Shown: piece by piece, positions 2,092 through 32,000 of the stretch
How positions within the stretch are numbered: position 1 is the stretch's first letter
Layout: each line of letters opens with the position of its first letter
Assembly: GCA_016700015.1 (NCBI GenBank)
Contig: CP064995.1
Location: 270,001-302,000 of the forward strand
Source of the DNA: Candidatus Saccharimonadota bacterium
GTDB lineage: Bacteria; Patescibacteriota; Saccharimonadia; Saccharimonadales; Saccharimonadaceae
Length of the DNA stretch: 32,000 bases
Direction: 5' to 3'
Position numbers and translations under genes: made by a program
The notes under the pieces: model-generated
Seen by the model: only the letters and a program-made list of their open reading frames with translations
What the model was told of the DNA's origin: nothing
The model's database searches: none

Positions 2092-2915
2092 ACCATCTTT
2101 CCGTGGTGACGTGGAATGCAGAAGGAATGTTTGTAGATGGCACAAAAACGAAACGAGCAAACCCTCATGATGCGCTACGTGTCATTCGGGAGCTCGATGC
2201 TGATATCATTGTTATCCCCGAATTTGGCAATCTCGCGGGATTACGTGATGAAATTCGTACGACCATCCAATCACTAGGCTATCAGATCGCTTCTTCGATG
2301 TATCATGATGCCAGAGTGCCGGACCTCGGTTTTGTTATCTTGAGCAGGCTACCGATTATTGCCGAACACACCCACTCACTTGCGGTGACGGGGCGAACAT
2401 TCCTTGAACTTGTGTGCAAAGACCCGCAGAACAACCATCTAAGGATAATCGGCGTGCACCTCGATGATCGCGGCGAGGCAATCCGCATGAAGCAGGTAGG
2501 TGGTGTTGTGAGCGTTATCAACCAAGATAACACCATCCCGACGCTCCTCGTCGGCGATATGAATGCGATGCATGAAACATCGCAGTTTGCCGCATTTGTG
2601 CGATCGAAGCTGGCTCGGAGTATTGTCAGGCGAGTTAAGCACGAGCAAATTGCTCGGGTTGCATCGGCCGTTCAGGATATGGCGATGGGAACAACGATTG
2701 CCTATTTATTGAAAGAAACAACACTGCATGATCTCGACACAAAGAACAGGCGGACGATCAGCGGTAAACAGCGTGGTCTTGAGTGGATTCCAGCAGTGCG
2801 TCTTGCTAAAATTGACTGGATATTTGGATCAAAACAGTTTCGTACGCTCAGCTACCGCATCATGCGTGATGTTGGGTCAGACCACCGGCCAGTACTTGCA
2901 AAAATACAATATTGA
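2088..2915 (+). CDS. Endonuclease/exonuclease/phosphatase (EEP) family protein
   Basis: 275 aa. VVTWNAEG at the N-terminus, GDMNA in the middle and SDHRPV at the C-terminus are the EEP fold signatures. The ATG overlaps the uvrB stop (ATGA), suggesting translational coupling. Confidence 0.85.
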
Positions 2916-2922
2916 CACAGTA

Positions 2923-2951
2923 TTGCATAAAATAAAATTCTCTTGTATCAT
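2923..2951 (+). promoter_or_regulatory. Putative sigma70-type promoter for the 3015 ORF
   Basis: TTGCAT (2923-2928), a 17-nt spacer, then TATCAT (2946-2951). A GGTGA SD-like motif lies 7 nt before GTG 3015. Confidence 0.4.
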
Positions 2952-3014
2952 ATGCAATAATCCCACATTGTCTATGTGGATAGCACCTACTATGCGAGAG
3001 GATGGTGATGGCAT

Positions 3015-3689
3015 GTGTCAGCCGAAGAGCTCGCGCAGCTGGAAGCAGATGTAAAGGCTGCCGAGTGGCGCATGCTTGATGCGCGCTGGCGTGTTAGGAG
3101 AGCCCGAGATGGTATCAGTGAATTACGTGTGCGGCTGAGGGAGCTGAATACAGAAGAGCAAGAGCTCCAGGCTTTGCACAATCAGCTGGATAACCACAGG
3201 TTGTCGGCGCATCGATCACGTCGCTGGAGCAAAGCTGCTCAGAAAAAGCGACGTCGTGATGCGATTGGCGACAAAAAGGCCATCGTTCGCAACGAGCGTC
3301 GTACTATAGAAGCACATATTGAGCGCATCAATGCGCAGGCCGAGGGTCTGAAGCAAGAACTTCACCTGGCTCATTTGGAGCGCACCCATGCCCAGAGACG
3401 GCACTTGTGGCTCAGGGCACTTGCAGGTGTCGAAGATGCCGACGGAAGAGCCGCTAAGCTTTTATATATGCGAACTGCCAAGCTAGGAGCACTCGCGCCC
3501 GAAGCGGTGTGGGTGTATACAGTTGGCGGCCCGCAGAATGTCACCGAAGTTCACTTGTTCTACGGTGGCGGTATATCACCGCTTGGCCCCACCCCGTCAC
3601 CAGACGGAGCCGGCCACGGACATCATATTCTCCGACGAAATAAGGACGGTAAACTCTCCCTCGACTACAAACGGTTACCAAGCCGATAG
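3015..3689 (+). CDS. Hypothetical Arg-rich coiled-coil protein
   Basis: 224-aa ORF with a GTG start. The N-terminal ~140 aa are heptad-like and R/K/E/Q-rich. The C-terminal ~80 aa look globular (VWVYTVGG...LFYGGGISPLGP). No family recognised. GC is patchy and above backbone (65% and 50% in two sampled lines). Confidence 0.6.
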   Translation: MSAEELAQLEADVKAAEWRMLDARWRVRRARDGISELRVRLRELNTEEQELQALHNQLDNHRLSAHRSRRWSKAAQKKRRRDAIGDKKAIVRNERRTIEAHIERINAQAEGLKQELHLAHLERTHAQRRHLWLRALAGVEDADGRAAKLLYMRTAKLGALAPEAVWVYTVGGPQNVTEVHLFYGGGISPLGPTPSPDGAGHGHHILRRNKDGKLSLDYKRLPSR

Positions 3690-3743: not shown

Positions 3744-5505
3744 CTTGAGAAAATATATAGACACAGTAGCCAGGAATGGGCAGTGTCACATTACCTACGT
3801 CGTCGGTCACAACTGTTTCAATGTGCTCGCCTTCGAAATCGGCACTATAGCCCGTCCATGAACTATTGAAGCGCACATTCCACACGCCATTTTTGGGTAA
3901 ATGCAGCGTGTAAGAATCAAAACCATCACGATTAAAATTCGCAATCACTATCGTGTCGTCACCACTCCCTCCGGTGCTCCATCGGTGATAGCCAATAATA
4001 TTGTTGTGTTCGTCGCGGTGGAATAGTGATACAGACCCGCCCAGGAGCCCAGAGCTCGTGCCCGTAAGGTCCCGTCGCAAGTGTATGAGGTCTCGATGGG
4101 CAGCAACGATGCCGCTGAATTTTTCGGTCTTTTGCCAGTCAAGCATTTGCCAATCATTGAATGCGCCTTCCTGCATAAATTCTTGGCCTTGTAGCAGCAT
4201 AGGAATGCCAGGTGAGGTAAGGGTGATGGCGCTGGCGAGCAATAGGCGCTTCCGCGCGAGCACACTGCCTGGGTGCTTGGGAGTGATTGCTGCCGTGATC
4301 CTGGTTGAACCATTGGCGGCTGTATCGTGCGAGTCACTAAAAATAATCTTTTCGAAAGCATTGCCGTTGTAGTAGTGGTAAAGTTCATGCGTAAAGTCGA
4401 CAGGCTCGCCAGTACCAAGGCCGATGAGTTGCCGTATGGCATGGGGAAACACAATGCCCCATTGGGCGTCAAAGCCGCAGCCGTCGTACTCGCGCGGCTT
4501 GGTGAGGTATTCATTGGTTGAGACATCTTCGGCAATCATAATAGCACCAGGACGAACTTTATGGGCGATGGAAGTGATTTCTTGCATTAGGCTCCAGGCG
4601 TCGCCGATATCATGCGGTGGGTCATCGTTGTAGCCTTTGGTATTGCGCATATACGCCGTGCTATCGAGCCGTAGTCCATCAACACGGAACTCACTGAACC
4701 ACATAACAACATTGTCGAGCAGGAACTGCCGAACTTCTGCACGGCCGTAGTCCGGCCTGGCGCCCCATGGCGTATCGCCGCGCTCATCATTATAAAAATA
4801 TATACCGCCGCGGTCATTTTCGTACCAGCCATCATAGCGCCATAGGTCGCTACTCATAAAATGGTTATAGACAACATCGATAATCACACCGATACCGCGC
4901 TGGTGACAAGCTTTCACAAATTCCATTAGCCCGTGCCGGCCGCCATATGCTGTCTCAATCGAAAAGATATCGCTGGTATTGTATCCCCAGCCATTACTAA
5001 ATGTCATGCTCGTGACGGGCATAAGTTCCACCATATTAATGCCGAGATCGCGTAAATAATCGAGCTTTTCAATAGCATCATAGAACGTACCCTGGGTTGC
5101 TTCATCTTTACGATTAAATGTTCCTATGTGAAGTTCATAAAGAACCTGTTGCTCTTTTGGCACGGGCATAAACACATCATCACCCCACTCAAAGTCGGTT
5201 GCGGCAATTACCGACACGCCATTTTCTGACGACGTGAGCATGCGTCCGCGCGGGTCATTGCGCTGCAGTAGTTCGTGCCCGGTGTCAATCAGGAATTTGT
5301 AATTCTGGCCAGCCTCTGCGGTTTTAACGAATACCGACCAATAGCCGTCATTTTCGTTCAACATATCATGCACGTTACTGCCGTCGTACACGCCCAAAAA
5401 CGGCACCATCAGCTTGACATTTGTCGCAAACGGCGCCCAAACGCGAAATTCAGCTCCATCGGCGTGAAGCGTCACTCCCAGCTTTTTCTTAACCTGATGG
5501 CTCAT
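3739..5505 (-). CDS. GH13 alpha-amylase-family enzyme with an N-terminal E-set/CBM48-like domain (GlgB/TreZ-like glucan branching or debranching type)
   Basis: GH13 conserved regions are present: GVIIDVVYNH, FRVDGLRLDSTAY, IAEDVS, FSDSHD. The N-terminus is FRVWAP. I prefer ATG 5505 (MSHQVKKK) over the ORF-track GTG 5571, because TTGCGT-16-CATAAT sits 9 nt upstream of 5505 and 5571 would leave only 38 bp to gatC. Confidence 0.85.
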   Translation of the reverse strand: MSHQVKKKLGVTLHADGAEFRVWAPFATNVKLMVPFLGVYDGSNVHDMLNENDGYWSVFVKTAEAGQNYKFLIDTGHELLQRNDPRGRMLTSSENGVSVIAATDFEWGDDVFMPVPKEQQVLYELHIGTFNRKDEATQGTFYDAIEKLDYLRDLGINMVELMPVTSMTFSNGWGYNTSDIFSIETAYGGRHGLMEFVKACHQRGIGVIIDVVYNHFMSSDLWRYDGWYENDRGGIYFYNDERGDTPWGARPDYGRAEVRQFLLDNVVMWFSEFRVDGLRLDSTAYMRNTKGYNDDPPHDIGDAWSLMQEITSIAHKVRPGAIMIAEDVSTNEYLTKPREYDGCGFDAQWGIVFPHAIRQLIGLGTGEPVDFTHELYHYYNGNAFEKIIFSDSHDTAANGSTRITAAITPKHPGSVLARKRLLLASAITLTSPGIPMLLQGQEFMQEGAFNDWQMLDWQKTEKFSGIVAAHRDLIHLRRDLTGTSSGLLGGSVSLFHRDEHNNIIGYHRWSTGGSGDDTIVIANFNRDGFDSYTLHLPKNGVWNVRFNSSWTGYSADFEGEHIETVVTDDVGNVTLPIPGYCVYIFSQE

Positions 5506-5609
5506 CTGGCTTCTATTATGAAGCATGAGCAGTATTACGCAAGTCCCGCTTGATAAGGTTGTATGGAGCACTGTATTTCTGTACTGAAATAAGCTATAAT
5601 ATTTAGTTA

Positions 5610-5903
5610 ATGAGCACGATTACTAGCGACGATGTGCGCCACTTGGCGCAGCTCTCAAACTTGCAGCTTAGTGACGAAGAAGTTGCGGACTTGCAGGTCG
5701 ATCTTGGCAATATTTTGAACTACATTAACCAACTGAGTCAGCTCGACACAACAGGGGTTGAACCGACCTACCAGGTGACTGGGCTTGAAAATGTATGGCG
5801 TGAAGACAAAGTCGCCCAAGGTAACGTGCCACGCGAGCAGTTACTTGCACTCGCTCCTGACCAGCAAGATGGCAGTGTGAAAGTTCCGCAGGTGCTTTCA
5901 TGA
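5610..5903 (+). CDS. gatC: Asp/Glu-tRNA amidotransferase subunit C
   Basis: 97 aa. VRHLAQLSNLQLSDEE...L..IL.Y...L is typical GatC. It overlaps the gatA start (ATGA). Confidence 0.9.
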   Translation: MSTITSDDVRHLAQLSNLQLSDEEVADLQVDLGNILNYINQLSQLDTTGVEPTYQVTGLENVWREDKVAQGNVPREQLLALAPDQQDGSVKVPQVLS

Positions 5904-7306
5904 GCATCGCCGCTATCGTACAGCGTGTTAAAGCCGGCCAATCATCGGCTCGGGCTGAAGTTGAAGCGGCGTTGGCACGCGCGAAAGAAAATAGTGATTA
6001 CCATGCGCTACTCGCGCTTACCGAAAAACGCGCCCTTGAACGAGCCGATGAAATTGATGCAGCACTACAGGCTGGCAAACATGCGGGCAAACTCGCTGGC
6101 GTACCATTTGTCGTCAAAGACAACTACTTAGCCTTCGGCGCGCCAACAACTGCAGCCAGCAAAATCCTCGAAAACTTTATGAGTCCCGTGCAGGCAACTG
6201 TTGTTGAAAAGCTAGAGGCTGAAGGGGCGATTTGTATTGGCAAATCTAATCTTGATGCTTTCGCTCACGGCGGCAGCACTGAAAATTCCGCGTATGGTGT
6301 CACAAAAAATGCAGTCGACATGAGTAAAGTGGCTGGTGGTAGTAGCGGCGGTTCGGCAGTTGTAACAGCGCTCAATATTGTACCGTTTGCACTTGGCAGC
6401 GATACGGGGGGCAGTATTCGACAGCCAGCTAGTTTTAATGGAATATATGGCATGAAGCCAACCTATGGTATGAGCAGCCGCTACGGTGTGGTGGCGATGG
6501 CGAGCAGTACGGACGTTATGGGATGCTTTACGACATGTGCCGAAGATGCTGCATTGGTGCTGAGTATCATGGCGGGACGTGACGACAAAGATATGACGAC
6601 GCTGCCTGACTATTTTTTACCAATAACTAATGTACCATCCCGACTAAAAATTGGCGTTGTGAAAGAAACCATGGGCGACGATGTCGACGAAGAAGTCCGA
6701 CAAGTTACCACAGACTATATTAGTCGTCTCAAAGCAGCTGGTCACGAAGTCGAAGAAGTCAGTATGCCGCTCGCTCCTATGGCGCTCGCTATGTATTACA
6801 TCATCGTGCCGGCTGAAGTGTGCAGTAACTTGGCGCGCTACGACGGCGTGCGCTACGGTCGACGTGCAGAAGGCGTAAAAACACTTGCCGAATTGTATGG
6901 GCGCTCACGCGACGAAGGCTTTGTTACCGAGAACAAGCGCCGCATTATGATCGGAAGTTACGTGCTCAGTAGCGGCTACTTCGATGCCTATTACTTGCAG
7001 GCGCAAAAAGCCCGCACACTGCTCATCGAGTCGTTCAATGAACTATTTAAAACATATGATTTTCTTATTACGCCTACAGCGCCTACACCAGCTTTTGGTA
7101 TTGGCGAAAATACCAGTGACCCGATAAAAATGTACCTTTCCGACGTGATGACAGTACCAGCCAGCCTAGCTGGCATCCCGGCTCTGAGCGTTCCGGCTGG
7201 AGTTAGTAAAGACGGGCTTCCGATCGGCGTACAACTAATCGCACCCATGAAAGCCGACGCCGCACTTCTGGCACTAGCCGCTAGCATGGAGGAAATTCAT
7301 GGATAA
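5900..7306 (+). CDS. gatA: Asp/Glu-tRNA amidotransferase subunit A
   Basis: 468 aa with the amidase signature GGSSGGSAVVTA...GSDTGGSIRQPA. Confidence 0.95.
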   Translation: MSIAAIVQRVKAGQSSARAEVEAALARAKENSDYHALLALTEKRALERADEIDAALQAGKHAGKLAGVPFVVKDNYLAFGAPTTAASKILENFMSPVQATVVEKLEAEGAICIGKSNLDAFAHGGSTENSAYGVTKNAVDMSKVAGGSSGGSAVVTALNIVPFALGSDTGGSIRQPASFNGIYGMKPTYGMSSRYGVVAMASSTDVMGCFTTCAEDAALVLSIMAGRDDKDMTTLPDYFLPITNVPSRLKIGVVKETMGDDVDEEVRQVTTDYISRLKAAGHEVEEVSMPLAPMALAMYYIIVPAEVCSNLARYDGVRYGRRAEGVKTLAELYGRSRDEGFVTENKRRIMIGSYVLSSGYFDAYYLQAQKARTLLIESFNELFKTYDFLITPTAPTPAFGIGENTSDPIKMYLSDVMTVPASLAGIPALSVPAGVSKDGLPIGVQLIAPMKADAALLALAASMEEIHG

Positions 7307-7721
7307 TACCGCACTATTATTGCTCCTTGCTGCCGTACTGCTGGTTGCTGTTATTGGGGTTGTAGTACTAGTGTTTTCGGCAAAAAATGGGCCGAAACTT
7401 CAGGTGGCGAAATATCAGACGAAATGGCTCGCAATTGAAAATAGTATTGACCGCGAAACGCCAGCGACACATCAATTGGCAATACTCCAAGCCGATAAGC
7501 TACTCGACCAAGCACTTCGTGAGCGCCGTTTCAAGGGCACGACGATGGGCGAGCGCATGAAGTCGGCTAATAGTGTATGGAAGAATGCAAACCATGTGTG
7601 GAACGCCCACAAAATCCGCAATCAACTAGCTCATGAACCAGATGCTCACGTGACCTACGACATAACACTCCGTGCGCTCAGTGCCTATAAACAAGCGCTG
7701 AAGGATATGGGGGCAATATGA
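7299..7721 (+). CDS. Hypothetical single-pass membrane protein embedded in the gat operon
   Basis: 140 aa with an N-terminal TM helix (LLLLLAAVLLVAVIGVVVLVF). The start overlaps the gatA stop by 8 nt and the stop overlaps the gatB start (ATGA). Confidence 0.75.
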   Translation: MDNTALLLLLAAVLLVAVIGVVVLVFSAKNGPKLQVAKYQTKWLAIENSIDRETPATHQLAILQADKLLDQALRERRFKGTTMGERMKSANSVWKNANHVWNAHKIRNQLAHEPDAHVTYDITLRALSAYKQALKDMGAI

Positions 7722-9175
7722 CCGACGACGTACTAGCAACGTACGAAATGACCATTGGCATAGAATGCCATGTTCAGCTTGCGACCGCATCGAAACTATT
7801 TAGTCCTGCCGATAATGACGCACGTGATAAAGAACCAAATACCTGTGTCCACCCAATTGATTATGGGCTTCCCGGTATGTTGCCTATCCTCAACCGAGGA
7901 GCTATCGATCTTGCCATCAAAGCTGGCAAAGCCATGAATGCCGAAATTGCGCGGGTAAGTCGTTTTGACCGCAAGCACTATTTTTACCCCGATCTACCAA
8001 ACGGCTATCAGATTACCCAAATGTATCAACCGACTATTTTGGCAGGGTTTGTTGATGCTCCGCTCGAAGATTGCGGTAGCGTCCATGTGCGGATTCACCA
8101 TGCACACATCGAAGCCGATGCTGGTAAGCTGAGTCACTATAATGGCTATAGCTTAGTTGACCTTAATCGAGCCGGTACGCCACTGATTGAGATTGTGAGC
8201 GAGCCCGACATGCACACAGCCGCCGAAGCCAAAGCCTATGCGACGGAGCTGTACCGCCTCATGACATATGCGGGTGTGACACACGGTGATTTATACCATG
8301 GCAATATGCGTTTTGACGTCAATATTAGCGTGGCACCAAAAGGTAGTCGTGAGCTTGGCAAGCGTGCCGAAGTAAAAAATCTCAACAGTTTCCGTAGCGT
8401 CGAGCGCGCTGCAGAATACGAATTTCGCCGCCAGGTTGAGCTACTCGAAAAGGGTGAGCGTGTCGTACAAGAAACGCGTGGCTGGAATGATGCCAGGCAG
8501 ATCACGACAAGTCAGCGCAGCAAGGAAGATGCCCAGGATTATCGCTATATGCCCGACGCTGATATCCCTCCGATTGTACTGACAGATGAGGAAATAGCAC
8601 GTATTCAGGCTTATATTCCCACGTTGCCCCCCGTGTACCGTGACAAATGGGCTAGCCTTGAAGTCGATAAATCAGTCGTTACTTCGCTGCTAGCCAATCA
8701 AAACTACGCTCGCATTGTCACAGAAATACAAGAAAAAGCCGGCGACGCTGTCGCCAGACGCGTGGCGCACTGGTTCGCTAGTGCGCTCGGACAAATTGAC
8801 GCAGAAGACGCGACACCTGTCGACGTAAGTTCTCCCTATGTGTCCGTCGACGATCTGATCGAGCTTGCAACAATGACAGACGACGATCAATTGAGCAGCA
8901 CAGCTGCACGTGAAGTATTTACAGAACTGTTGACAGGTGCCGAAAACCCACGAGCGATTGCTGAAGCCAAAAACCTGCTACAGGTGAGCGACGAAAATGC
9001 TGTCGCGGCGATTGTCGATGAGGTGCTGCAAGACCCATCTTCGACCGCAAGTATCGCCGATATTAAAGCTGGTAAAGACAAAGCTATCGGCTATCTCGTA
9101 GGACAAGTGATGAAGAAATCACAGGGTAAGGCCAATCCGGCCCTGGCGCAAAAGCTAATTCGGGACAAAATATAG
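7718..9175 (+). CDS. gatB: Asp/Glu-tRNA amidotransferase subunit B
   Basis: 485 aa. GIECHVQL, KHYFYPDLP.GYQITQ, and a C-terminal GatB/YqeY domain (GYLVGQVMKKSQGKANP). Confidence 0.95.
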   Translation: MTDDVLATYEMTIGIECHVQLATASKLFSPADNDARDKEPNTCVHPIDYGLPGMLPILNRGAIDLAIKAGKAMNAEIARVSRFDRKHYFYPDLPNGYQITQMYQPTILAGFVDAPLEDCGSVHVRIHHAHIEADAGKLSHYNGYSLVDLNRAGTPLIEIVSEPDMHTAAEAKAYATELYRLMTYAGVTHGDLYHGNMRFDVNISVAPKGSRELGKRAEVKNLNSFRSVERAAEYEFRRQVELLEKGERVVQETRGWNDARQITTSQRSKEDAQDYRYMPDADIPPIVLTDEEIARIQAYIPTLPPVYRDKWASLEVDKSVVTSLLANQNYARIVTEIQEKAGDAVARRVAHWFASALGQIDAEDATPVDVSSPYVSVDDLIELATMTDDDQLSSTAAREVFTELLTGAENPRAIAEAKNLLQVSDENAVAAIVDEVLQDPSSTASIADIKAGKDKAIGYLVGQVMKKSQGKANPALAQKLIRDKI

Positions 9176-9183
9176 GAGTAGTC

Positions 9184-10089
9184 ATGCAACGACCAACTAA
9201 AGCAATCATCGCAGCAGCAGGTTTCGGCACGAGATTCTTGCCACAGACTAAGGCTATGCCTAAAGAAATGATGCCGATTATTGATAAGCCGATTATTCAA
9301 TATGTCGTAGAGGAGCTGGTCGAAGCGGGTATTAAAGATATTATTATCGTTGGAAGTAGTAATAAGCGTGCAATTGAAGATCACTTCGACCTGCCAAATG
9401 AGGACCTGCTCACCAACCTTCGGGCTGGCGGAGAGAAAAAGGAACCACTCATTACCATGGTAAATGAGCTGGCTGGGCTTGCTAACTTCATTTACATACG
9501 CCAAAAGGGTCCATACGGCAACGCGACGCCTATGCACTGCGCTGCGCACCTCATAGGTGCAGATGAGTCGTTCATTTATGCATTTGCCGACGATTTCATC
9601 AAAGCAACACCAACACGATTTAGCCAGATGATCGACGCACATATGGAGCTAGGCACTCCAATATTGACTTGCAAGGCAGTGCTTTCTGATGACGAATACG
9701 ATCGATACGGTATAGTTGCGGGAGAGACAATCAATGATGGAGTGATCAGAATGTCGACTATCGTTGAGCGCCCAGGAAAAGAGAATGCTCCCTCTGCCCT
9801 CGCATCAGTCAGCAGCTACTTGTTTACTGGCAAGATATTTGACTATATCGAGCGAGCGAACGCTGCGCATGACGGTAACGATGAGCTTAAGCTGCAACCA
9901 ATCGTCCAGCAAATGATTGATGACGGCTATACTCACCACGCGATAGAAATAAAAAATGGGCACTACTATGATACTGGTGACAAGCTGGAGTATATAAAAA
10001 CAGTTTTAGACTTTGGGCTTGAGCATCCAGAGCTCGGACCATCGCTCCGTACATATATCAATAGCAAAACTATGCATCAAAGTGAATAA
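9184..10089 (+). CDS. galU: UTP--glucose-1-phosphate uridylyltransferase
   Basis: 301 aa. AIIAAAGFGTRFLPQTKAMPKEMMPIIDKPIIQY is the GalU signature. An AGGAG SD lies upstream. Confidence 0.9.
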   Translation: MQRPTKAIIAAAGFGTRFLPQTKAMPKEMMPIIDKPIIQYVVEELVEAGIKDIIIVGSSNKRAIEDHFDLPNEDLLTNLRAGGEKKEPLITMVNELAGLANFIYIRQKGPYGNATPMHCAAHLIGADESFIYAFADDFIKATPTRFSQMIDAHMELGTPILTCKAVLSDDEYDRYGIVAGETINDGVIRMSTIVERPGKENAPSALASVSSYLFTGKIFDYIERANAAHDGNDELKLQPIVQQMIDDGYTHHAIEIKNGHYYDTGDKLEYIKTVLDFGLEHPELGPSLRTYINSKTMHQSE

Positions 10090-19313: not shown

Positions 19314-19703
19314 ATGATTGCGTTGTTCATTGTGCTGGCATCAGTTGTCGGCCTCGTTGCGTACACCGCCATCGGCGCCTACGCCATGGGCTGGGTCAAG
19401 CCCTACGCCAGGCTGATGTGCGATGACATCGGATGTCGTGGTGGTTATGGTTGCATGCACCATTACATCCCGCCCTGGACCGTTGTCGTCTGGTGGGTCA
19501 TGGTGCCCGCCGTTATCGCCCAGCTCGTGGCAACCGATCGATGGCAGCGCTTCCGTCGCCTCGCTCGCGAGGAGCGCGCCGAGGCTCGATTGGAAGATGC
19601 GCGCCAGGCGCGGGACCGCACCGAGCGGCTCATCGCCCAGCTCGACGCCAGTCGCGCCGAGGCTCAGGCGTCCCTGCGGCGCATCCAGGACGTCGCCGCC
19701 TAG
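19314..19703 (+). CDS. Hypothetical membrane protein on a high-GC islet
   Basis: 129 aa. Two TM segments flank a Cys-rich loop (CDDIGCRGGYGC), followed by an R/E/A-rich coiled coil. A TAAGGAG SD lies 6 nt upstream. The third codon position is strongly G/C in this frame. Confidence 0.65.
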   Translation: MIALFIVLASVVGLVAYTAIGAYAMGWVKPYARLMCDDIGCRGGYGCMHHYIPPWTVVVWWVMVPAVIAQLVATDRWQRFRRLAREERAEARLEDARQARDRTERLIAQLDASRAEAQASLRRIQDVAA

Positions 19704-21903: not shown

Positions 21904-22749
21904 CTACTTCTTTCCGGCCGGCTTCGGCGCCGCCGGCTTGGGTGCCGCTGGCTTGGGTGCGGCCGGCTTACCGACGGTGCCCGGGTTCGCGGCAGAGCCC
22001 GACCCGCCAAACGGCGTGGCCGGCTTGACGCCGTTTGCCTTGGCGTAGGTCGACGCCGACTTGGCGGAATCGACCTTGATGACGCCGCCCTTGCCAATGG
22101 TGGCAGTGGCATCATTCGTGGCCTTCGGCATCGGCATCGTGCGGTAGCCTGCCTTGGGGCTCTTCTGTGCCGTGGCGAAGTCGACGGGCGCCGTGGACGT
22201 CCCGTAGTACACCTTCGTCACGGTGTAGCTTTTGTACGCCGGCTGGCGCAGCCACTGGCCGCCGCCCACCTGCGTATACGGAACGTAGGCCCGTCCGTAG
22301 GAATCGATGCCGACCAGGCTACTGAGAGCCATGTACTGTAGTGGCGACAGGTCACCGCTCAGCATACCATACGTGAGCATGGCGTTGCCGCTCCGATAGC
22401 CCATGACACGGGCCATCATCCAGTAATATAGGAAGTTGGCGTCTTCGTCCTTCTTGACGAAGTGCTGTCCACCACCGACGTCGATGACGCAGACCGTGTC
22501 GTCGCCGGTGGCGTCGCTATACGTCTTGACCTCGTCGCCGTTCTTGGCGGCGTACTCGGCCAGCTGGGTAACCTCAGCCGGTTTCAACTCAGTGTAGCAT
22601 TCGGTCGCATCCTGCTGGTCCAGCGACCAGCCGGGCTGCGACGACGTGCTGTTGTTGCCGCTACACGCGGCGGTGCCGGCCATCAGGCCGAGCGCGGCGA
22701 GCACAGTGATGAAAACGCGGGGGAATCGGAACCTGGACAATGTGACCAC
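21904..22749 (-). CDS. High-GC putative lipoprotein with a C-terminal (PAAPK)3 repeat
   Basis: 281 aa. Signal peptide plus lipobox LMAGTAAC. GC3 is strongly biased in this frame. The start is GTG 22749, or TTG 22740 which has better SD spacing. No family recognised. Confidence 0.75.
   Translation of the reverse strand: MVTLSRFRFPRVFITVLAALGLMAGTAACSGNNSTSSQPGWSLDQQDATECYTELKPAEVTQLAEYAAKNGDEVKTYSDATGDDTVCVIDVGGGQHFVKKDEDANFLYYWMMARVMGYRSGNAMLTYGMLSGDLSPLQYMALSSLVGIDSYGRAYVPYTQVGGGQWLRQPAYKSYTVTKVYYGTSTAPVDFATAQKSPKAGYRTMPMPKATNDATATIGKGGVIKVDSAKSASTYAKANGVKPATPFGGSGSAANPGTVGKPAAPKPAAPKPAAPKPAGKK
21920..21969. repeat. 15-bp tandem repeat, about 3.3 copies
   Basis: GGCTTSGGYGCSGCY units start at 21920, 21935, 21950 and 21965 (the last partial). 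They encode PAAPKPAAPKPAAPKPA on the minus strand. Confidence 0.8.
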
Positions 22750-22810
22750 CCTCTCTGGGGAGTAGTGCGAGGAGCGGGGGAAGGTGCGGCTGCACTATCC
22801 CTTCCTCTAC

Positions 22811-22839
22811 ATTATAGCATAAATACCATAAAAATGCAA
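22811..22839 (-). promoter_or_regulatory. AT-rich sigma70-type promoter for the lipoprotein gene
   Basis: On the minus strand: TTGCAT (22839-22834), a 17-nt spacer, then TATAAT (22816-22811). The leader is about 55 nt. Confidence 0.5.
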
Positions 22840-22859
22840 TATACTCAATAAAATAAATT

Positions 22860-22884
22860 GGGGTAGCGGGTGCTCCGCTACCCC
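22860..22884 (-). terminator. Rho-independent terminator of the 90-aa ORF
   Basis: Perfect 10-bp stem GGGGTAGCGG / CCGCTACCCC with a 5-nt loop. On the minus strand it is followed by AATTTATTTTATT. Confidence 0.65.
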
Positions 22885-22892
22885 GTATGCGA

Positions 22893-23165
22893 CTACGCGT
22901 CCTGAATGCCAGCCGGCACAAATGCACTGTCCTGGACACCTGGCAATTGGTTCTCCTCAACAATCAAGTTGAGGGTAGTCAGGAGAAGCTTATCGGAGTC
23001 GGCCAGACCGTACCCTGTGTAAATTGCTTCACCGAGCCGCTGTTTCATGTTGTCCACGAATGAGTCGAGCGTACCAGACATCCAGATACCCTGGACGCTG
23101 AGACGAGCGGGCGCTTCCCAAGCGTCGCTCATGGCTTCGACGACCAAAATCACTAGCTTGCTCAT
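22893..23165 (-). CDS. Hypothetical 90-aa protein (weak HicB/UPF0150-like impression only)
   Basis: I prefer ATG 23165 (MSKLVILVVEAMSDAWEA...), which has a GAGGAG SD 4 nt upstream. The ORF-track N-terminal extension to 23327 runs into the IS element. Confidence 0.55.
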   Translation of the reverse strand: MSKLVILVVEAMSDAWEAPARLSVQGIWMSGTLDSFVDNMKQRLGEAIYTGYGLADSDKLLLTTLNLIVEENQLPGVQDSAFVPAGIQDA

Positions 23166-23200
23166 GATGCTCCTCGCGGGTAGGCCTCCATTCCGTTTTG

Positions 23201-24225
23201 AATCAGGACACCCGATGCTAGACAATACACACCATGAAGAAAGCATCAAAGGTAACGGATGCCGAGCGAAGCGAGATAGACATCCTCCATACCAAAGGCT
23301 ATTCTGCACGGGCCATCGCCCGTGCATTGGGGCGCAGTCCCAATACCATTGCGACCGAGCTGCAACGCAATAGCCTCAAGGATGGGAGATACGTCGCTAC
23401 CCACGCCAAACACAAAGCCTATGTACGGCGTAAGTATGCTCGCTACCAAGGCAAGAAGATTCAAGACAATGACGAGCTTCGCTCGTTCATCGTCCTGAAA
23501 CTCTCTGAGCACTGGAATCCAGACGAGATAGCCGGCTATCTCAGAGCCAACTCAGCGCTTGGTATCTATGCCAGCAAGACGGCCATCTATGAATGGTTGC
23601 GCAGTGCCTGGGGACAACAGTACTGCCCGTTGCTGTACTCGAAGCGTTACCGCAAGAAACCACGCAGACAACTCAGGGCGGGTCACGTCATGATTCCCGA
23701 CCGCACTTCCGTCACAGAGCGACCGCTGGTCGCTCTAGACCGAGCCGAGACCGGTCACTGTGAATACGACAGCGTCGTGAGCAGCAAGCACCCAGGGAGC
23801 GCCTCTGCACTCGCTGTCCTTACCGAACGGTCTTCACGACTGGTACGAGCGAAGCTCGTACCTAACCTGAAGCCAGAGCCGTACGCACACACCATCTCGC
23901 GACTCGCGAGTGGGCTGGGGGTTCGCAGTATGACGACCGATAACGGCATCGAGAACAGGCGCCACGCACTCGTCACTAATAAGACGGGCGCGCCCGTCTT
24001 CTTTACTGACCCCTATTCCTCTTGGCAAAAAGGCAGTGTCGAGAATGCCAACAAGATGCTGCGTCGCTACTTCCCGAAGGGCACCGACTTTGCTACAGTG
24101 ACACAAACGGATGTTGACAATGCGCTAGCACGCATTAACAACAAGCCGAGGAAGATCCTCGGCTACAAAAGTTCATTACAAGTTGCAAAAGAGAAAGGAT
24201 TAATTCTAGAGGGAGTGTCCTGATT
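23201..24225 (+). mobile_element. Compact IS30-family insertion sequence (about 1025 bp)
   Basis: Terminal inverted repeats AATCAGGACAC at 23201-23211 and its reverse complement at 24215-24225, extending imperfectly inward. They enclose one IS30-type transposase ORF. I found no clear target-site duplication. Confidence 0.7.
23234..24223 (+). CDS. IS30-family DDE transposase
   Basis: 329 aa. N-terminal HTH (GYSARAIARALGRSPNTIATELQRN). DDE candidates are GHCEYDSV, TTDNGIEN and SVENANKMLRRYFPKG. The stop codon lies inside the right IR. Confidence 0.9.
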   Translation: MKKASKVTDAERSEIDILHTKGYSARAIARALGRSPNTIATELQRNSLKDGRYVATHAKHKAYVRRKYARYQGKKIQDNDELRSFIVLKLSEHWNPDEIAGYLRANSALGIYASKTAIYEWLRSAWGQQYCPLLYSKRYRKKPRRQLRAGHVMIPDRTSVTERPLVALDRAETGHCEYDSVVSSKHPGSASALAVLTERSSRLVRAKLVPNLKPEPYAHTISRLASGLGVRSMTTDNGIENRRHALVTNKTGAPVFFTDPYSSWQKGSVENANKMLRRYFPKGTDFATVTQTDVDNALARINNKPRKILGYKSSLQVAKEKGLILEGVS

Positions 24226-27773: not shown

Positions 27774-28526
27774 ATGAACTACGAATCTAAAGTCACGTCC
27801 GTGGTGGGGCATGACAGGTTGCGCCGTCGGCGCGTGCTTGGCTCGTGCTTGGTAGTCCTTGCGGTTGGGATGTTTTTCTATCAAAATCAACAGCCTGCTA
27901 TAGCGCCAGACATATCAAAACCACCATCGGTGACTACAGGTCAGTCACAGTCTACAGCGGGCTTGCCGCTGGCTGCAACTGTGCTCGAAACACTGGCCGT
28001 CAAAGGACGGGCCCCAAAAACCGGTTATGTACGCGAAAAATTCGGTGATGGCTGGTTGCTCAATGGCAATTGCGACACGCGCAACATTATATTAAACCGC
28101 GACCTTGGCAATGTGGTGTTAGGCCAGGGCTGCAAGGTCATGAGTGGCGTGCTGGCCGACCCCTACACTGGATCTGTCGTTATATTCAGTCGCGGTGCCG
28201 ACACCAGTGACGATGTGCAGATCGACCACGTGGTAGCTCTCAGTAATGCCTGGCAGACGGGTGCGCAGCTGCTCGAACCAAACAGGCTGGTAGAGTTTGC
28301 GAATGACCCGCTCGAGCTGTTGGCAGTAGACGGTAAAGCCAACCAAGCCAAGGGTGATGGCGATGCTGCCACCTGGCTACCAAGCAACAAAGCCTTCCGT
28401 TGTCAGTACGTCGCGCGGCAAATCGCCGTCAAGGCCAAGTATAATTTGTGGGTGACGCCACCTGAAAAGTCAGCGATGCAACAGGTGCTTAGCAACTGCC
28501 CATTACAAACTGTGCCTGCATCGTAG
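27774..28526 (+). CDS. Membrane-anchored or secreted DUF1524-type HNH nuclease
   Basis: 250 aa from ATG 27774. N-terminal TM (VLGSCLVVLAVGMFFY). KTGYVREKFGDGW, CDTRN, VQIDHVVALSNAW, LLAVDGKANQAKGD and WLP match the DUF1524 C-terminal nuclease pattern. The ORF-track start at 27729 would overlap the pepN start. Confidence 0.75.
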   Translation: MNYESKVTSVVGHDRLRRRRVLGSCLVVLAVGMFFYQNQQPAIAPDISKPPSVTTGQSQSTAGLPLAATVLETLAVKGRAPKTGYVREKFGDGWLLNGNCDTRNIILNRDLGNVVLGQGCKVMSGVLADPYTGSVVIFSRGADTSDDVQIDHVVALSNAWQTGAQLLEPNRLVEFANDPLELLAVDGKANQAKGDGDAATWLPSNKAFRCQYVARQIAVKAKYNLWVTPPEKSAMQQVLSNCPLQTVPAS

Positions 28527-28565
28527 TCTGAAACTTTGCAGGGATACTATGGGCGTATAGTGAAA

Positions 28566-28585
28566 ACCTCCTCTCGAGAGGAGGT
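28566..28585. terminator. Palindromic hairpin between convergent genes
   Basis: Perfect 18-bp palindrome CCTCCTCTCGAGAGGAGG at 28567-28584. A T-run (GTTTTC) is present on the minus-strand side. Confidence 0.5.
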
Positions 28586-28598
28586 GTGTGGAGTTGCG

Positions 28599-28832
28599 CT
28601 AACCAAGCTCAGGCTCTATCGCCCGAATAGTGAAGCCGATAGCGCGGCGGACTGCCAATTCGGCGCTGTCTCTGCCCTCTGAGCTCGGGAGGGATACCAT
28701 CAGAATGGTCACTCCTTCGAACTCGCGCAAGCCCACCTTGACTTCGGGTAGCGCGAGTTCCACGACTCGATCGAATGCCAGGTTGGCTTCCGGCATCTTG
28801 GGGAAGATGTAGATGAGGTCAACGTTCGCCAT
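28599..28832 (-). CDS. Hypothetical 77-aa protein on a high-GC islet
   Basis: I prefer ATG 28832 (MANVDLIYIF...), which has a GGAG SD 7 nt upstream. Sampled lines are 60-63% GC. No family recognised. Confidence 0.55.
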   Translation of the reverse strand: MANVDLIYIFPKMPEANLAFDRVVELALPEVKVGLREFEGVTILMVSLPSSEGRDSAELAVRRAIGFTIRAIEPELG

Positions 28833-28889
28833 GGCTATACTCCAAACGTTCGTGCGGGGATAAACCGCAAGGGTTGAATTATCATTACT

Positions 28890-28918
28890 ATTATAACAAA
28901 TTTCAATAAAAGAGTCAA
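28890..28918 (-). promoter_or_regulatory. Strong sigma70-type promoter for the 77-aa ORF
   Basis: On the minus strand: TTGACT (28918-28913), a 17-nt spacer, then TGtTATAAT (the -10 at 28895-28890). The leader is about 55 nt. Confidence 0.55.
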
Positions 28919-28955
28919 TAGACACATCTGTTAAAAGAGGTGTATAATACGATTC

Positions 28956-29627
28956 ATGTGGTTTCGCAAAAAGCAAATTCATGTCTACGAGCTGTTGGTC
29001 GGGCTGTTTGTGATGACATTGATCGTCAGCAATATTGCGAGCGTCAAGATGATACAGGTCGGTCCACTAGTGTTCGACGCCGGTACAGTGTTATTTCCGC
29101 TCGCCTATATCATCGGCGACATTGTGACTGAAGTTTATGGCTACCGCAAAATGCGCTCGCTGTTGTATGTCGGTGTGGGCACGTTGCTGCTGACTAGCCT
29201 GACATTCTGGCTAGTGGGCGCGCTGCCAGCGCAGGCCGAGTGGCCCAACCAATCGTCGTACGACGCAATTCTAGGCGTGGTCTGGCGAATTGTCGGTGCA
29301 AGTATCGTTGCCATTCTTATTGGTGAACTGATGAATTCCTATGTGCTGGCGACGCTGAAGATCAGGACAAAGGGCAAAAAGCTGTGGCATAGGCTCGTTG
29401 GTAGTTCGGCTGTTGGCAGTCTTGTTGACACGACAGTATTTAGCTTACTAGCCTTTGCGGGCACAGTGTCTGGTAGTGCAATGTTGCAGCTCATCGCGAC
29501 GGTATTTCTGATCAAAATCAGCACCGAAATTATCGTTTCGCCACTGACAATGCGTATCATCCACCACATCAAGCGGCATGAGAAACTGGATGCGTATGAG
29601 GTACCTGCGACGCACCTACTAAACTAA
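28956..29627 (+). CDS. yhhQ: Queuosine-precursor transporter (YhhQ / VUT / DUF165 family)
   Basis: 223 aa, polytopic. LIVSNIASVKMIQVGPLVFDAGTVLFPLAYIIGDIVTEVYGY is the family signature. Confidence 0.85.
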   Translation: MWFRKKQIHVYELLVGLFVMTLIVSNIASVKMIQVGPLVFDAGTVLFPLAYIIGDIVTEVYGYRKMRSLLYVGVGTLLLTSLTFWLVGALPAQAEWPNQSSYDAILGVVWRIVGASIVAILIGELMNSYVLATLKIRTKGKKLWHRLVGSSAVGSLVDTTVFSLLAFAGTVSGSAMLQLIATVFLIKISTEIIVSPLTMRIIHHIKRHEKLDAYEVPATHLLN

Positions 29628-29644
29628 AAAAATGGTAATTTAAG

Positions 29645-29686
29645 AGCTCCTCTTCCATGGTTGAATTTCGCCATGGAAGAGGAGCT
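29645..29686. terminator. Long perfect hairpin between convergent genes
   Basis: 16-bp perfect stem AGCTCCTCTTCCATGG (29645-29660) / CCATGGAAGAGGAGCT (29671-29686) with a 10-nt loop. Confidence 0.6.
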
Positions 29687-29698
29687 GTTGTGTAGGTA

Positions 29699-30301
29699 CT
29701 AACCCTTGAGGTCGAATCCCAGCGCTTCAAGCACCTTGCGCTTCTCGGAGAGCGCACCGCCCAGGAGGTAGGCGCGCTGCTCTGGCGGCAGGCCATTGAT
29801 GAATGCCTGAACCATTTCCCGTACCTCGTCGCCAATGTCGACCAGCAGGGTGTTGAGCCGCTCGCCGAGTGCGGCTTGTTCAGCATTCTTGCGCTTATGC
29901 TCCTGCTGTGCGGCACGACTTGTGCTGATCTGCTCAGCCGAGGCTTCCTCTGCTGGGAAAGCGAGGTTGTTGCTATACGTGCCGATACAGAGCAACCGGC
30001 GGCCAGGGCCAAGCTCGGTGATCAATTCGGATGGCGTACAGACAGTAGTGTCTATCACGGCCAGGTATGAAGCTGCGCCCATCGGGCGATGCTTGAATAA
30101 GTCGTAGGACGCGGGGCGCACCACATACCGACCATCAGATTGCAAAGCAACCTGTTCCGTAAGGGCAGCCAAAAAAGGCTCCCATGCGCGACGGCGAGAG
30201 ATAAAGGCAGACAAATCCCTGGGGACCTCCCAGCCGGCGACGATAGCCGCGGCGTACCCAATAGCAAACGTATTGGCAAATGCAAACGAGCTTCCGTTCA
30301 T
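29699..30301 (-). CDS. Hypothetical 200-aa protein on a high-GC islet
   Basis: I prefer ATG 30301 (MNGSSFAF...). The promoter -10 abuts the ORF-track ATG at 30340, so that codon is probably not transcribed. A sampled line is 62% GC. No family recognised. Confidence 0.6.
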   Translation of the reverse strand: MNGSSFAFANTFAIGYAAAIVAGWEVPRDLSAFISRRRAWEPFLAALTEQVALQSDGRYVVRPASYDLFKHRPMGAASYLAVIDTTVCTPSELITELGPGRRLLCIGTYSNNLAFPAEEASAEQISTSRAAQQEHKRKNAEQAALGERLNTLLVDIGDEVREMVQAFINGLPPEQRAYLLGGALSEKRKVLEALGFDLKG

Positions 30302-30340
30302 TTCGAATCCCTTTCTCGGGTTCCAACAGATTATGTACAT

Positions 30341-30369
30341 ATTTTAATACTTTTTATTTATACTGTCAA
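30341..30369 (-). promoter_or_regulatory. Consensus promoter for the 200-aa ORF
   Basis: On the minus strand: TTGACA (30369-30364), a 17-nt spacer, then TAAAAT (30346-30341). Confidence 0.5.
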
Positions 30370-30429
30370 TAATTTAAACAAGGAAAGCACTTATTGGCAA
30401 CGTACTAGCCCCTACGGCAGTGGCCATTG

Positions 30430-30458
30430 TTGACAGTGCATGATATGTAGCGTACAGT
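30430..30458 (+). promoter_or_regulatory. Consensus promoter for the 81-aa ORF
   Basis: TTGACA 30430-30435, a 17-nt spacer, then TACAGT 30453-30458. A GGAAGGTG SD lies ahead of ATG 30491. Confidence 0.5.
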
Positions 30459-30490
30459 ATGGTTATTCAATCGACAGGAAGGTGATTGGA

Positions 30491-30736
30491 ATGGCCGAGT
30501 TCTTTCAACTTGTGCGAACCGTGCCCGACTTCAGCACTGGAAGCGCTAAGGTGGTAAGTAGCGGTCCAGTTGTGCTCGCGGTTGGAACCCGGGAATACTG
30601 TGAGCGGGAGCGGAGGATCTACGAGGCAGCAGATCGGGCGACTGCTGAGACGTTCTCTGGTACTATCACTGGAATCAGTGGTACGCTTGCACAGTATGAG
30701 ATCTGCCCGATTCCGGTTCAGACCGAGCCGAAATAG
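30491..30736 (+). CDS. Hypothetical 81-aa protein
   Basis: ATG 30491 (MAEFFQLVRT...) has an SD. A sampled line is 58% GC. No family recognised. The ORF-track start at 30440 lies inside the promoter. Confidence 0.5.
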   Translation: MAEFFQLVRTVPDFSTGSAKVVSSGPVVLAVGTREYCERERRIYEAADRATAETFSGTITGISGTLAQYEICPIPVQTEPK

Positions 30737-30755
30737 TAAGTAAGCGACGAACACA

Positions 30756-30777
30756 GCCCGCTCAGCAATGAGCGGGC
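30756..30777 (+). terminator. Rho-independent terminator
   Basis: GCCCGCTCA-gcaa-TGAGCGGGC followed by ATTTTATT. Confidence 0.65.
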
Positions 30778-30783
30778 ATTTTA

Positions 30784-32000
<1,217 letters not shown>

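Follow-up and report, generated by a model that had tools for sequence, protein, structure and literature searches.

The stretch of DNA analyzed here (the window) comprises 32,000 nucleotides of contig CP064995.1 (positions 270,001 to 302,000; GenBank assembly GCA_016700015.1, Candidatus Saccharimonadota bacterium). Our subject is the spacer between two of its genes, yhhQ and tgt. This gap (29628-30783, 1156 bp) contains two open reading frames (ORFs), ORF200 and ORF81, which diverge from a 189-bp intergenic region of 38% G+C (GC) content. An earlier note on this DNA, made from the sequence alone, had described the two as a small, horizontally acquired pair of raised GC content with a shared control region, possibly a regulator/effector, toxin-antitoxin-like, or small defence module. 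The ORFs, the back-to-back promoters, both hairpins, and the yhhQ and tgt flanks are all present where that note placed them:

28956..29627, plus strand: yhhQ/QPTR (COG1738, Vut_1), preQ0/preQ1 transporter gene, left flank (Pfam PF02592, 5.5e-44)
29642..29689, unstranded: hairpin with a 17-19 bp stem between convergent yhhQ and ORF200 (inverted repeat I1)
29699..30301, minus strand: ORF200, 200 aa, supported by homologs, a syntenic ortholog, codon score, and promoter
30341..30369, minus strand: ORF200 promoter, TTGACA-17-TAAAAT (promoter scan, 11/12 matches)
30430..30458, plus strand: promoter-like site upstream of ORF81, TTGACA-17-TACAGT (promoter scan, 10/12 matches)
30491..30736, plus strand: ORF81, 81 codons, species-specific, coding status unproven
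30756..30777, unstranded: terminator hairpin with a 9-bp GC-rich stem between convergent ORF81 and tgt (terminator scan)
30784..32000, minus strand: tgt, bacterial tRNA-guanine transglycosylase (TGT), right flank, with its 5' end beyond the window (Pfam PF01702 (TGT), 1.9e-126)

ORF200 is, by its sequence features, a real gene. Its codon score of 0.129 per codon is the top of the six frames, and it has an ortholog, P0003, in the same slot and orientation and with a conserved promoter, in a sister species that we call species B (L094-L099), the window species being species A. The two proteins are 42% identical, and their N-terminal alignment (MNGSSF / MNRSSF) agrees with a start at ATG 30301, which is favored over 30340 because the -10 hexamer ends 1 nt before the latter. 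Downstream of the promoter comes a ~33-nt leader that includes a Shine-Dalgarno sequence, AAGGGA. Promoter and leader are ~80% identical in species B, compared with 65% for the entire aligned region, and this degree of conservation next to proteins that are only 42% identical argues for expression of ORF200.

A word-indexed search with ORF200 found only the protein itself. When 1.84 billion cluster representatives were searched with index-free HMMER, 26 relatives emerged at E < 1e-3, led by P0003 (8e-37) and P0004 (6e-17) and followed by ~20 proteins of 190-220 aa, and with these relatives the description of ORF200 as an ORFan falls. A profile of the main branch of this family, built without ORF200, P0003, and P0004, matches ORF200 with 100.9 bits (E 7.5e-24). 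ORF200 thus belongs to the family by a full-length profile, and also by its length (~190-220 aa in the family) and its three-part architecture, in which a long central helix joins a globular domain of ~120 aa at the N terminus to a short helical region at the C terminus. The family alignment (A1) runs the full length and shows the motifs T-I/V-R-x-A-D, LF, YLV-C, TP...VTEL, and GPY-x-NG, followed by the long helix and the C-terminal helices. Its invariant or near-invariant positions are mostly hydrophobic or structural, with no invariant charged or catalytic-type residue. Database records say just "hypothetical protein" (e.g., HRC28116.1, from a Candidatus Saccharimonas sp., and HYG84347.1). 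The family is small, fast-evolving, rare, and lineage-restricted, and it is now defined, previously unnamed, with an alignment and a profile. One further candidate, P0005 (3534 aa, E 1.4e-11), was rejected as an artifact of 14 identical Ig-like repeats, since one repeat on its own scores 9.7 bits and the score against the family profile is -1.9 bits.

No significant match to ORF200 was found in Pfam, NCBIfam, PADLOC, PHROGs, or PDB sequences, and phage, plasmid, and viral-contig collections held no homologs of it. Among 24 family members, no Pfam, NCBIfam, PADLOC, PHROG, or PDB-sequence match was common to more than one; scattered single-member hits to Pfam, NCBIfam, and PHROGs were regarded as noise. 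A viral-contig scan returned nothing, and a metagenome scan only one locus, which was known already. Also treated as noise were a weak hit to TraI_2 (E 0.22), matches of the central helix to coiled coils in the PDB, an NDK-like stretch in TXNDC6 (E 0.89), and a Legionella HAMP histidine kinase (E 0.04). The earlier note had recognized no known family, and indeed no named family matches either ORF. As to the AlphaFold modeling that it proposed, single-sequence AlphaFold2 models of the two ORFs are poor (predicted local distance difference test [pLDDT], 48.8 for ORF200 and 49.8 for ORF81), that of ORF200 being confident only for the helix at residues 125-169 (pLDDT 72-78). From the lack of an invariant charged or catalytic-type residue in the family, together with the three-part architecture, we infer that ORF200 is probably non-enzymatic; it is also predicted to be cytoplasmic, and the modeled long helix (~45 residues) may serve for oligomerization.

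The flanking genes raise the question of whether ORF200 could be an unrecognized accessory factor in the salvage of queuosine precursors that stays between yhhQ and tgt because it functions together with them. The YhhQ/QPTR family has a role as preQ0/preQ1 transporter (PMC5372724, PMC11130926), and its physical linkage to bacterial TGT, even as a fusion, is on record (PMC11130926, PMC5372724). Clustering with bacterial TGT has served to find queuosine-salvage genes (PMC11130926), and used as a guide, it favors such a role, as does the position of ORF200 between yhhQ and tgt in two species, with queA 3 kb beyond tgt (complete at 414 aa in locus L001). However, all eight of the other family loci examined lie elsewhere, with no queuosine-pathway gene called nearby, so that the clustering does not recur, and most Saccharibacteria with the yhhQ-tgt pair lack ORF200. 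Across the family, moreover, no catalytic-type residue is invariant and a Cys cluster is lacking, and ORF200 has its own promoter and forms no operon with either neighbor. A part in queuosine salvage therefore seems to us highly improbable.

The loci of the family vary, and those eight share no recurrent neighbor of any kind; genes found nearby include HIT/rlmH, Pyr_redox_2 with Fic and an integrase, and Amidase_2. Tandem paralogs occur in L116 (7326-7964 and 8203-8862, 38-40% identical) and in L100, where an N-domain-only copy (1960-2307) precedes a full copy (2482-3114). Family genes have 53-64% GC versus 46-59% for the remainder of their contigs, as compared over 13 copies (from L095, L100, L103-L106, L109, L113, L115, and L116, plus window 29699-30301). 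In 12 of the 13 the gene stands 5-14 points above the contig remainder, the second L116 paralog being level with its contig. Amino-acid composition, codon bias, or a foreign origin common to these genes might account for this excess.

Leaders in the main branch carry the motif TCTTTCCAAAGTGG or co-varying variants of it (L100:2429-2442, L105:1195-1208, L106:9952-9965; also L113 and L116), and in these same five loci the reverse complement of the motif falls within ~35 nt downstream of the stop codon. The duplexes formed by cognate 5' and 3' sequences have energies of -21 to -39 kcal/mol, with covariation of the pairing partners from gene to gene. Covariation is also seen in a second leader hairpin of the main branch (GTGGA/TCCAC, ATGGAC/GTCCAT, CTAGG/CCTAG). 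The 5'/3' complementarity could represent pairing between the two untranslated regions or cassette-like inverted repeats; this co-varying architecture merits a study of its own.

It is conceivable that genes of the ORF200 family move as self-contained cassettes, inserting themselves between genes and perhaps stemming from donors of higher GC content, for instance actinobacterial hosts, and that the window copy is one such insertion. The GC excess, the variable loci, and the tandem paralogs would fit, as would the co-varying 12-30 nt inverted repeats that bracket the coding sequence in one sub-branch, the tRNA genes nearby, and the consistently monocistronic organization of the gene, which each time has a promoter and a terminator to itself. 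The window and species B copies, however, have no inverted repeats around them: TCTTTCCAAAGTGG is absent from the window, and pairing of leader and 3' flank (-8.3 kcal/mol at ORF200 and -10.5 kcal/mol in species B) is no better than for non-cognate pairs. Nor is there an integrase or transposase in the gap, or any hit in the phage, plasmid, and viral collections. Of the 18 family-bearing contigs retrieved, which are mostly Saccharibacteria-like, none is in the actinobacterial GC range (17 are at 46-52% and L116 is at 59%). Finally, the species B ortholog is syntenic, which implies vertical descent there. We consider the cassette explanation unlikely.

The coding status of ORF81 is doubtful on sequence grounds, and it may be either an orphan gene of recent origin or a short transcription unit that is non-coding or spurious. 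Among 5.8 billion proteins it matched only itself; PDB sequences, phages, plasmids, and all fetched loci held no significant homolog, and Pfam, NCBIfam, PADLOC, PHROGs, and Rfam gave no significant match. With no homolog outside its species, ORF81 has the distribution expected of an orphan or de novo gene, and here the label of ORFan holds. Matches to phrog_18275 (E 0.013) and to PDB chain 9f5x_Y (P9, E 0.46) were judged to be noise. A positionally equivalent 80-aa ORF in L014 has no similarity to ORF81, and decay from an ORF200 paralog was likewise dismissed, as a search for decayed family remnants in the ORF81 region, the L014 gap, and the species B intergenic region found none.

That ORF81 does not encode a protein at all is a serious possibility, which we place somewhat short of even. 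The promoter at 30430-30458 would then drive a short non-coding or spurious transcript to the tgt-proximal hairpin, or be inactive. Besides the lack of homologs, several observations favor this: when the 482-bp spacer is shuffled with its dinucleotides preserved, 16.5% of the shuffles have an ORF of 81 aa or more, all 18 reference genes score higher per codon (0.098-0.27) than ORF81 (0.063), the opposite strand offers an equally open frame of 95 aa, and the AlphaFold2 pLDDT is only about 50. The region is also deleted in species B, which keeps ORF200, with ORF200 and tgt unaffected. On the other hand, ORF81 has a good, well-spaced Shine-Dalgarno sequence (GGAAGGTG, 6 nt before the ATG), a promoter-like site, and a terminator T-tract on its own strand, and its frame is the best of six, whereas as an RNA the region has no Rfam family and a fold z score of only -1.9. 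The question concerns ORF81 only, and either answer is compatible with the reading of the whole spacer that we arrive at below.

The spacer itself is a derived insertion relative to an ancestral tight yhhQ/tgt junction, as judged by sequence comparison, because distant Saccharibacteria and Rhodococcus keep that tight junction. In these more distant Saccharibacteria and in several Rhodococcus genomes the two genes are convergent with a gap of about 5-130 bp (a few bp in L033; ~45 bp in L041, L022, and L015-L021; 27-130 bp in L023-L026 and L044). The earlier note had suggested looking for an uninterrupted junction in relatives, and L033, L041, L022, and others, along with Rhodococcus, provide it. 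Abutting convergent tgt and yhhQ are common to Saccharibacteria and Rhodococcus/Actinomycetes (L075, L076, L083, L086), whose TGT proteins are ~55-57% identical to that of the window.

Among species-representative genomes, the nearest TGT proteins are those of Saccharimonas/Saccharibacteria metagenome-assembled genomes (85%, 82%, and 78% identity), which places the window on a chromosome of Candidatus Saccharimonas (TM7). Three sister species all have a filled yhhQ-tgt slot, and the contents differ in each. Species A has ORF200 and ORF81. Species B, whose identity to species A is 85% for TGT, 94% for YhhQ, 73% for the GmrSD_C protein, and 52% for the M1 peptidase, has only the ORF200 ortholog and a 188-bp intergenic region. 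Species C (L014), with 85% identity for TGT and 78-79% for YhhQ, has 386 bp of unrelated DNA that contains the unrelated 80-aa ORF.

The insertion is not recent, because ORF200 is only 42% identical between species whose TGT is 85% identical, and horizontal acquisition, if meant as a recent event, is not supported. As for a recent islet, relatives with uninterrupted junctions (L033, L041, and others) show absence at the orthologous site; compositional deviation, flanking repeats, and mobility genes were not found, the GC z scores being 1.38 for ORF200 and 0.85 for ORF81, the repeats at chance level, and the gap free of integrases. The raised GC content claimed for the pair (62% and 58%) survives in part: at 58.5% and 56.1%, the two ORFs are mildly above the mean of the window genes (52.2 +/- 4.6%), but they are not compositional outliers, and two other window genes have 64-66% GC. 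A 9-nt direct repeat at both ends of ORF200 is at chance level. A 15-nt inverted repeat with 93% complementarity links the ORF200 leader (30313-30327) and the body of ORF81 (30581-30595). With ~0.1 expected by chance, and both mRNAs carrying the same sense, we took it as coincidence.

The neighboring slot, between the GmrSD_C gene and yhhQ (window 28527-28955), is variable too. It has a 77-aa ORF in the window (orf77, 28599-28832, minus strand; good codon score of 0.184, no homologs), an unrelated 44-aa ORF in the strain L002, standing on DNA non-homologous to the window, and a 111-aa ORF in species B. Both slots are turnover hot spots in a Saccharimonas clade.

The hairpin at 29642-29689 folds with -37.5 kcal/mol on the plus strand (z -8.1) and -32.9 kcal/mol on the minus strand (z -7.8), on which seven T residues follow it. 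From these properties, it probably acts as an intrinsic terminator in both directions. At the equivalent position in species B stands another hairpin, whose sequence is different. The hairpin at 30756-30777 (-19.5 kcal/mol, z -5.1) has its T-tract on the ORF81 strand. Its stem, GCCCGCTC, adjoins tgt in species C as well and is gone in species B; being common to A and C, it is therefore ancestral, predates the A/C split, and was lost in B. On the ORF81 side, species B roughly keeps the -35 element (TTGACT), and the downstream ORF is missing. Divergent promoters and a terminator also occur in the neighboring orf77/yhhQ intergenic region, and the layout is thus generic for this genome.

Relative to the window, a second strain (L002) shows 2.4-3.5% divergence over yhhQ and the genes for the M1 peptidase and the GmrSD_C protein. 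From 29615 onward it is identical through ORF200, ORF81, tgt, and two further genes, over ~4 kb (L001 ~5500-9500), which suggests recent recombination or a local sweep. With zero single-nucleotide polymorphisms in the 4-kb block from ORF200 through tgt and beyond, within-species polymorphism gave no information on the ratio of nonsynonymous to synonymous substitution.

Could ORF81 and ORF200 nevertheless form a species-specific two-gene module (toxin-antitoxin-like, regulator/effector, or small defence), co-regulated from the 189-bp region? Its attractions are the consensus-like divergent promoters 60 bp apart, the hairpins on both sides, the Shine-Dalgarno sequences of both ORFs, and the identity of the whole block between strains that differ in the left flank. 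The last of these is uninformative on the pair, because tgt and two more genes are inside the identical block. More importantly, the two ORFs are nowhere else found together: species B keeps ORF200 but lacks ORF81, and the eight other family loci have no ORF81-like neighbor. Gene-neighborhood co-occurrence was the check that the earlier note had itself proposed for a functional module, and the proposal does not withstand it. In addition, ORF81 has no homolog and a length within chance, and the genes diverge, unlike those of classical co-transcribed type II toxin-antitoxin systems.

Known families do not help this proposal either. Toxin, antitoxin, and defence models from Pfam, NCBIfam, and PADLOC gave no hit to either ORF at E <= 1 beyond noise, PADLOC-DB 2.0 gave none to ORF200, ORF81, or orf77, and neither ORF belongs to an anti-phage defence system known to that database. 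One of the 24 family members hit PADLOC (MTase_II, E 0.0032), and no other member shares the hit. However tidy a divergent arrangement with promoters and hairpins may look, it cannot count as evidence for a toxin-antitoxin or defence module when, as here, the two ORFs are not conserved together and one of them may not be a gene. We give this interpretation very little credence.

Taken together, these observations make it probable that the spacer is lineage-specific accessory DNA with two independent transcription units, and not a module. Accessory DNA would have entered a convergent yhhQ/tgt junction that was once tight, in a Candidatus Saccharimonas sub-clade, at a slot that appears prone to turnover. 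ORF200 would be monocistronic, transcribed from its own putative sigma-70-type promoter through a short leader with a Shine-Dalgarno sequence and ending at the hairpin that it shares with yhhQ. ORF81 would be a species-specific ORF and not a conserved partner of ORF200, and the two hairpins would be ordinary terminators, preventing convergent transcription from running into yhhQ and tgt.

Several points weigh against this reading. Species C is as close to the window species by TGT as species B is, yet it has unrelated DNA in the slot and lacks ORF200. The history of the slot is for this reason ambiguous and could be a gain in the ancestor of A and B, a loss in C, or repeated turnover. Expression of ORF200 and ORF81 is predicted from sequence signals, and ORF81, with its coherent signals, may yet encode a genuine small protein whose partner is ORF200, in the window species only. 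The functional inference for ORF200 draws on weak features and a poor AlphaFold2 model (pLDDT ~49). Restriction of the family to Saccharibacteria is only tentative, given one member, on a 1.05-Mb contig, that is labeled Verrucomicrobiae by NCBI. One could also imagine that the ORF200 family is a new, fast-diversifying type of cassette with a role in episymbiosis or in conflict with mobile elements, with a divergent member of it in the window and ORF81 as the newborn species-specific partner of that copy; this we think improbable. For the window, the result is mainly a correction, of modest value for the genomics of Saccharibacteria.

Elsewhere, the window carries uvrB, gatA/gatB, dnaE, pilB-like, malic enzyme, and M1 peptidase genes, among others. 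An Rfam scan of 28400-31000 found neither a riboswitch nor a small RNA, and specifically no preQ1 riboswitch upstream of yhhQ. The yhhQ ATG (28956) lies only 7 nt past the -10 hexamer TATAAT (28943-28948; region 28919-28958), which suggests that its mRNA may be leaderless or nearly so. The strongest compositional anomalies are at 21904-24223 and 19314-19703. The former includes a 281-aa ORF (64% GC, 0.83 at third codon positions, no Pfam hit) that adjoins an ORF with an HTH_38 domain, a domain of IS30-type transposases, and the latter is a 129-aa ORF of 66% GC.

Compared with known systems, the flanks of the spacer are bona fide members of the QPTR(YhhQ)-bacterial TGT cluster and neighbor each other as in many bacteria, but in the window the pair is parted by 1.15 kb of unrelated accessory DNA and lacks a detected preQ1 riboswitch upstream of yhhQ. 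Type II toxin-antitoxin genes form same-strand, co-transcribed operons and usually overlap or closely abut, and the known superfamilies include RelE/ParE, MazF, PIN, HipA, Fic/Doc, and GNAT for toxins and RHH, HTH, AbrB, and Phd for antitoxins. ORF200 and ORF81 resemble such systems in being two small adjacent genes, compactly arranged around an AT-rich control region. They differ in that ORF200 (minus strand) and ORF81 (plus strand) are divergent, 189 bp apart, and served by separate promoters, so that they form no operon; in that the pair is not conserved across genomes; and in that no toxin or antitoxin fold or family is detected and one of the two may be no gene at all.

With the rest of its family, the window copy has in common its length, its three-part architecture, the motifs T-I/V-R-x-A-D/S..LF, YL-x-V, TP..VTEL, and G-P/T-Y-x-N, its monocistronic organization, and a GC content above the contig background. 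Together with P0003 and P0004, however, it constitutes a divergent sub-branch, with 25-42% identity, a shorter C-terminal region without the main-branch ending "LTLEE.A.....G..IE.L", and neither the two-hairpin leader nor the 5'/3' inverted repeats of the main branch. ORF81, for its part, resembles the small orphan or de novo ORFs of restricted taxonomic range that stand in variable intergenic slots: it has no homolog, it occupies a slot that differs among three sister species, and its coding signal is marginal, and it differs from random ORFs in its unusually complete set of expression signals (promoter, Shine-Dalgarno sequence, and terminator).

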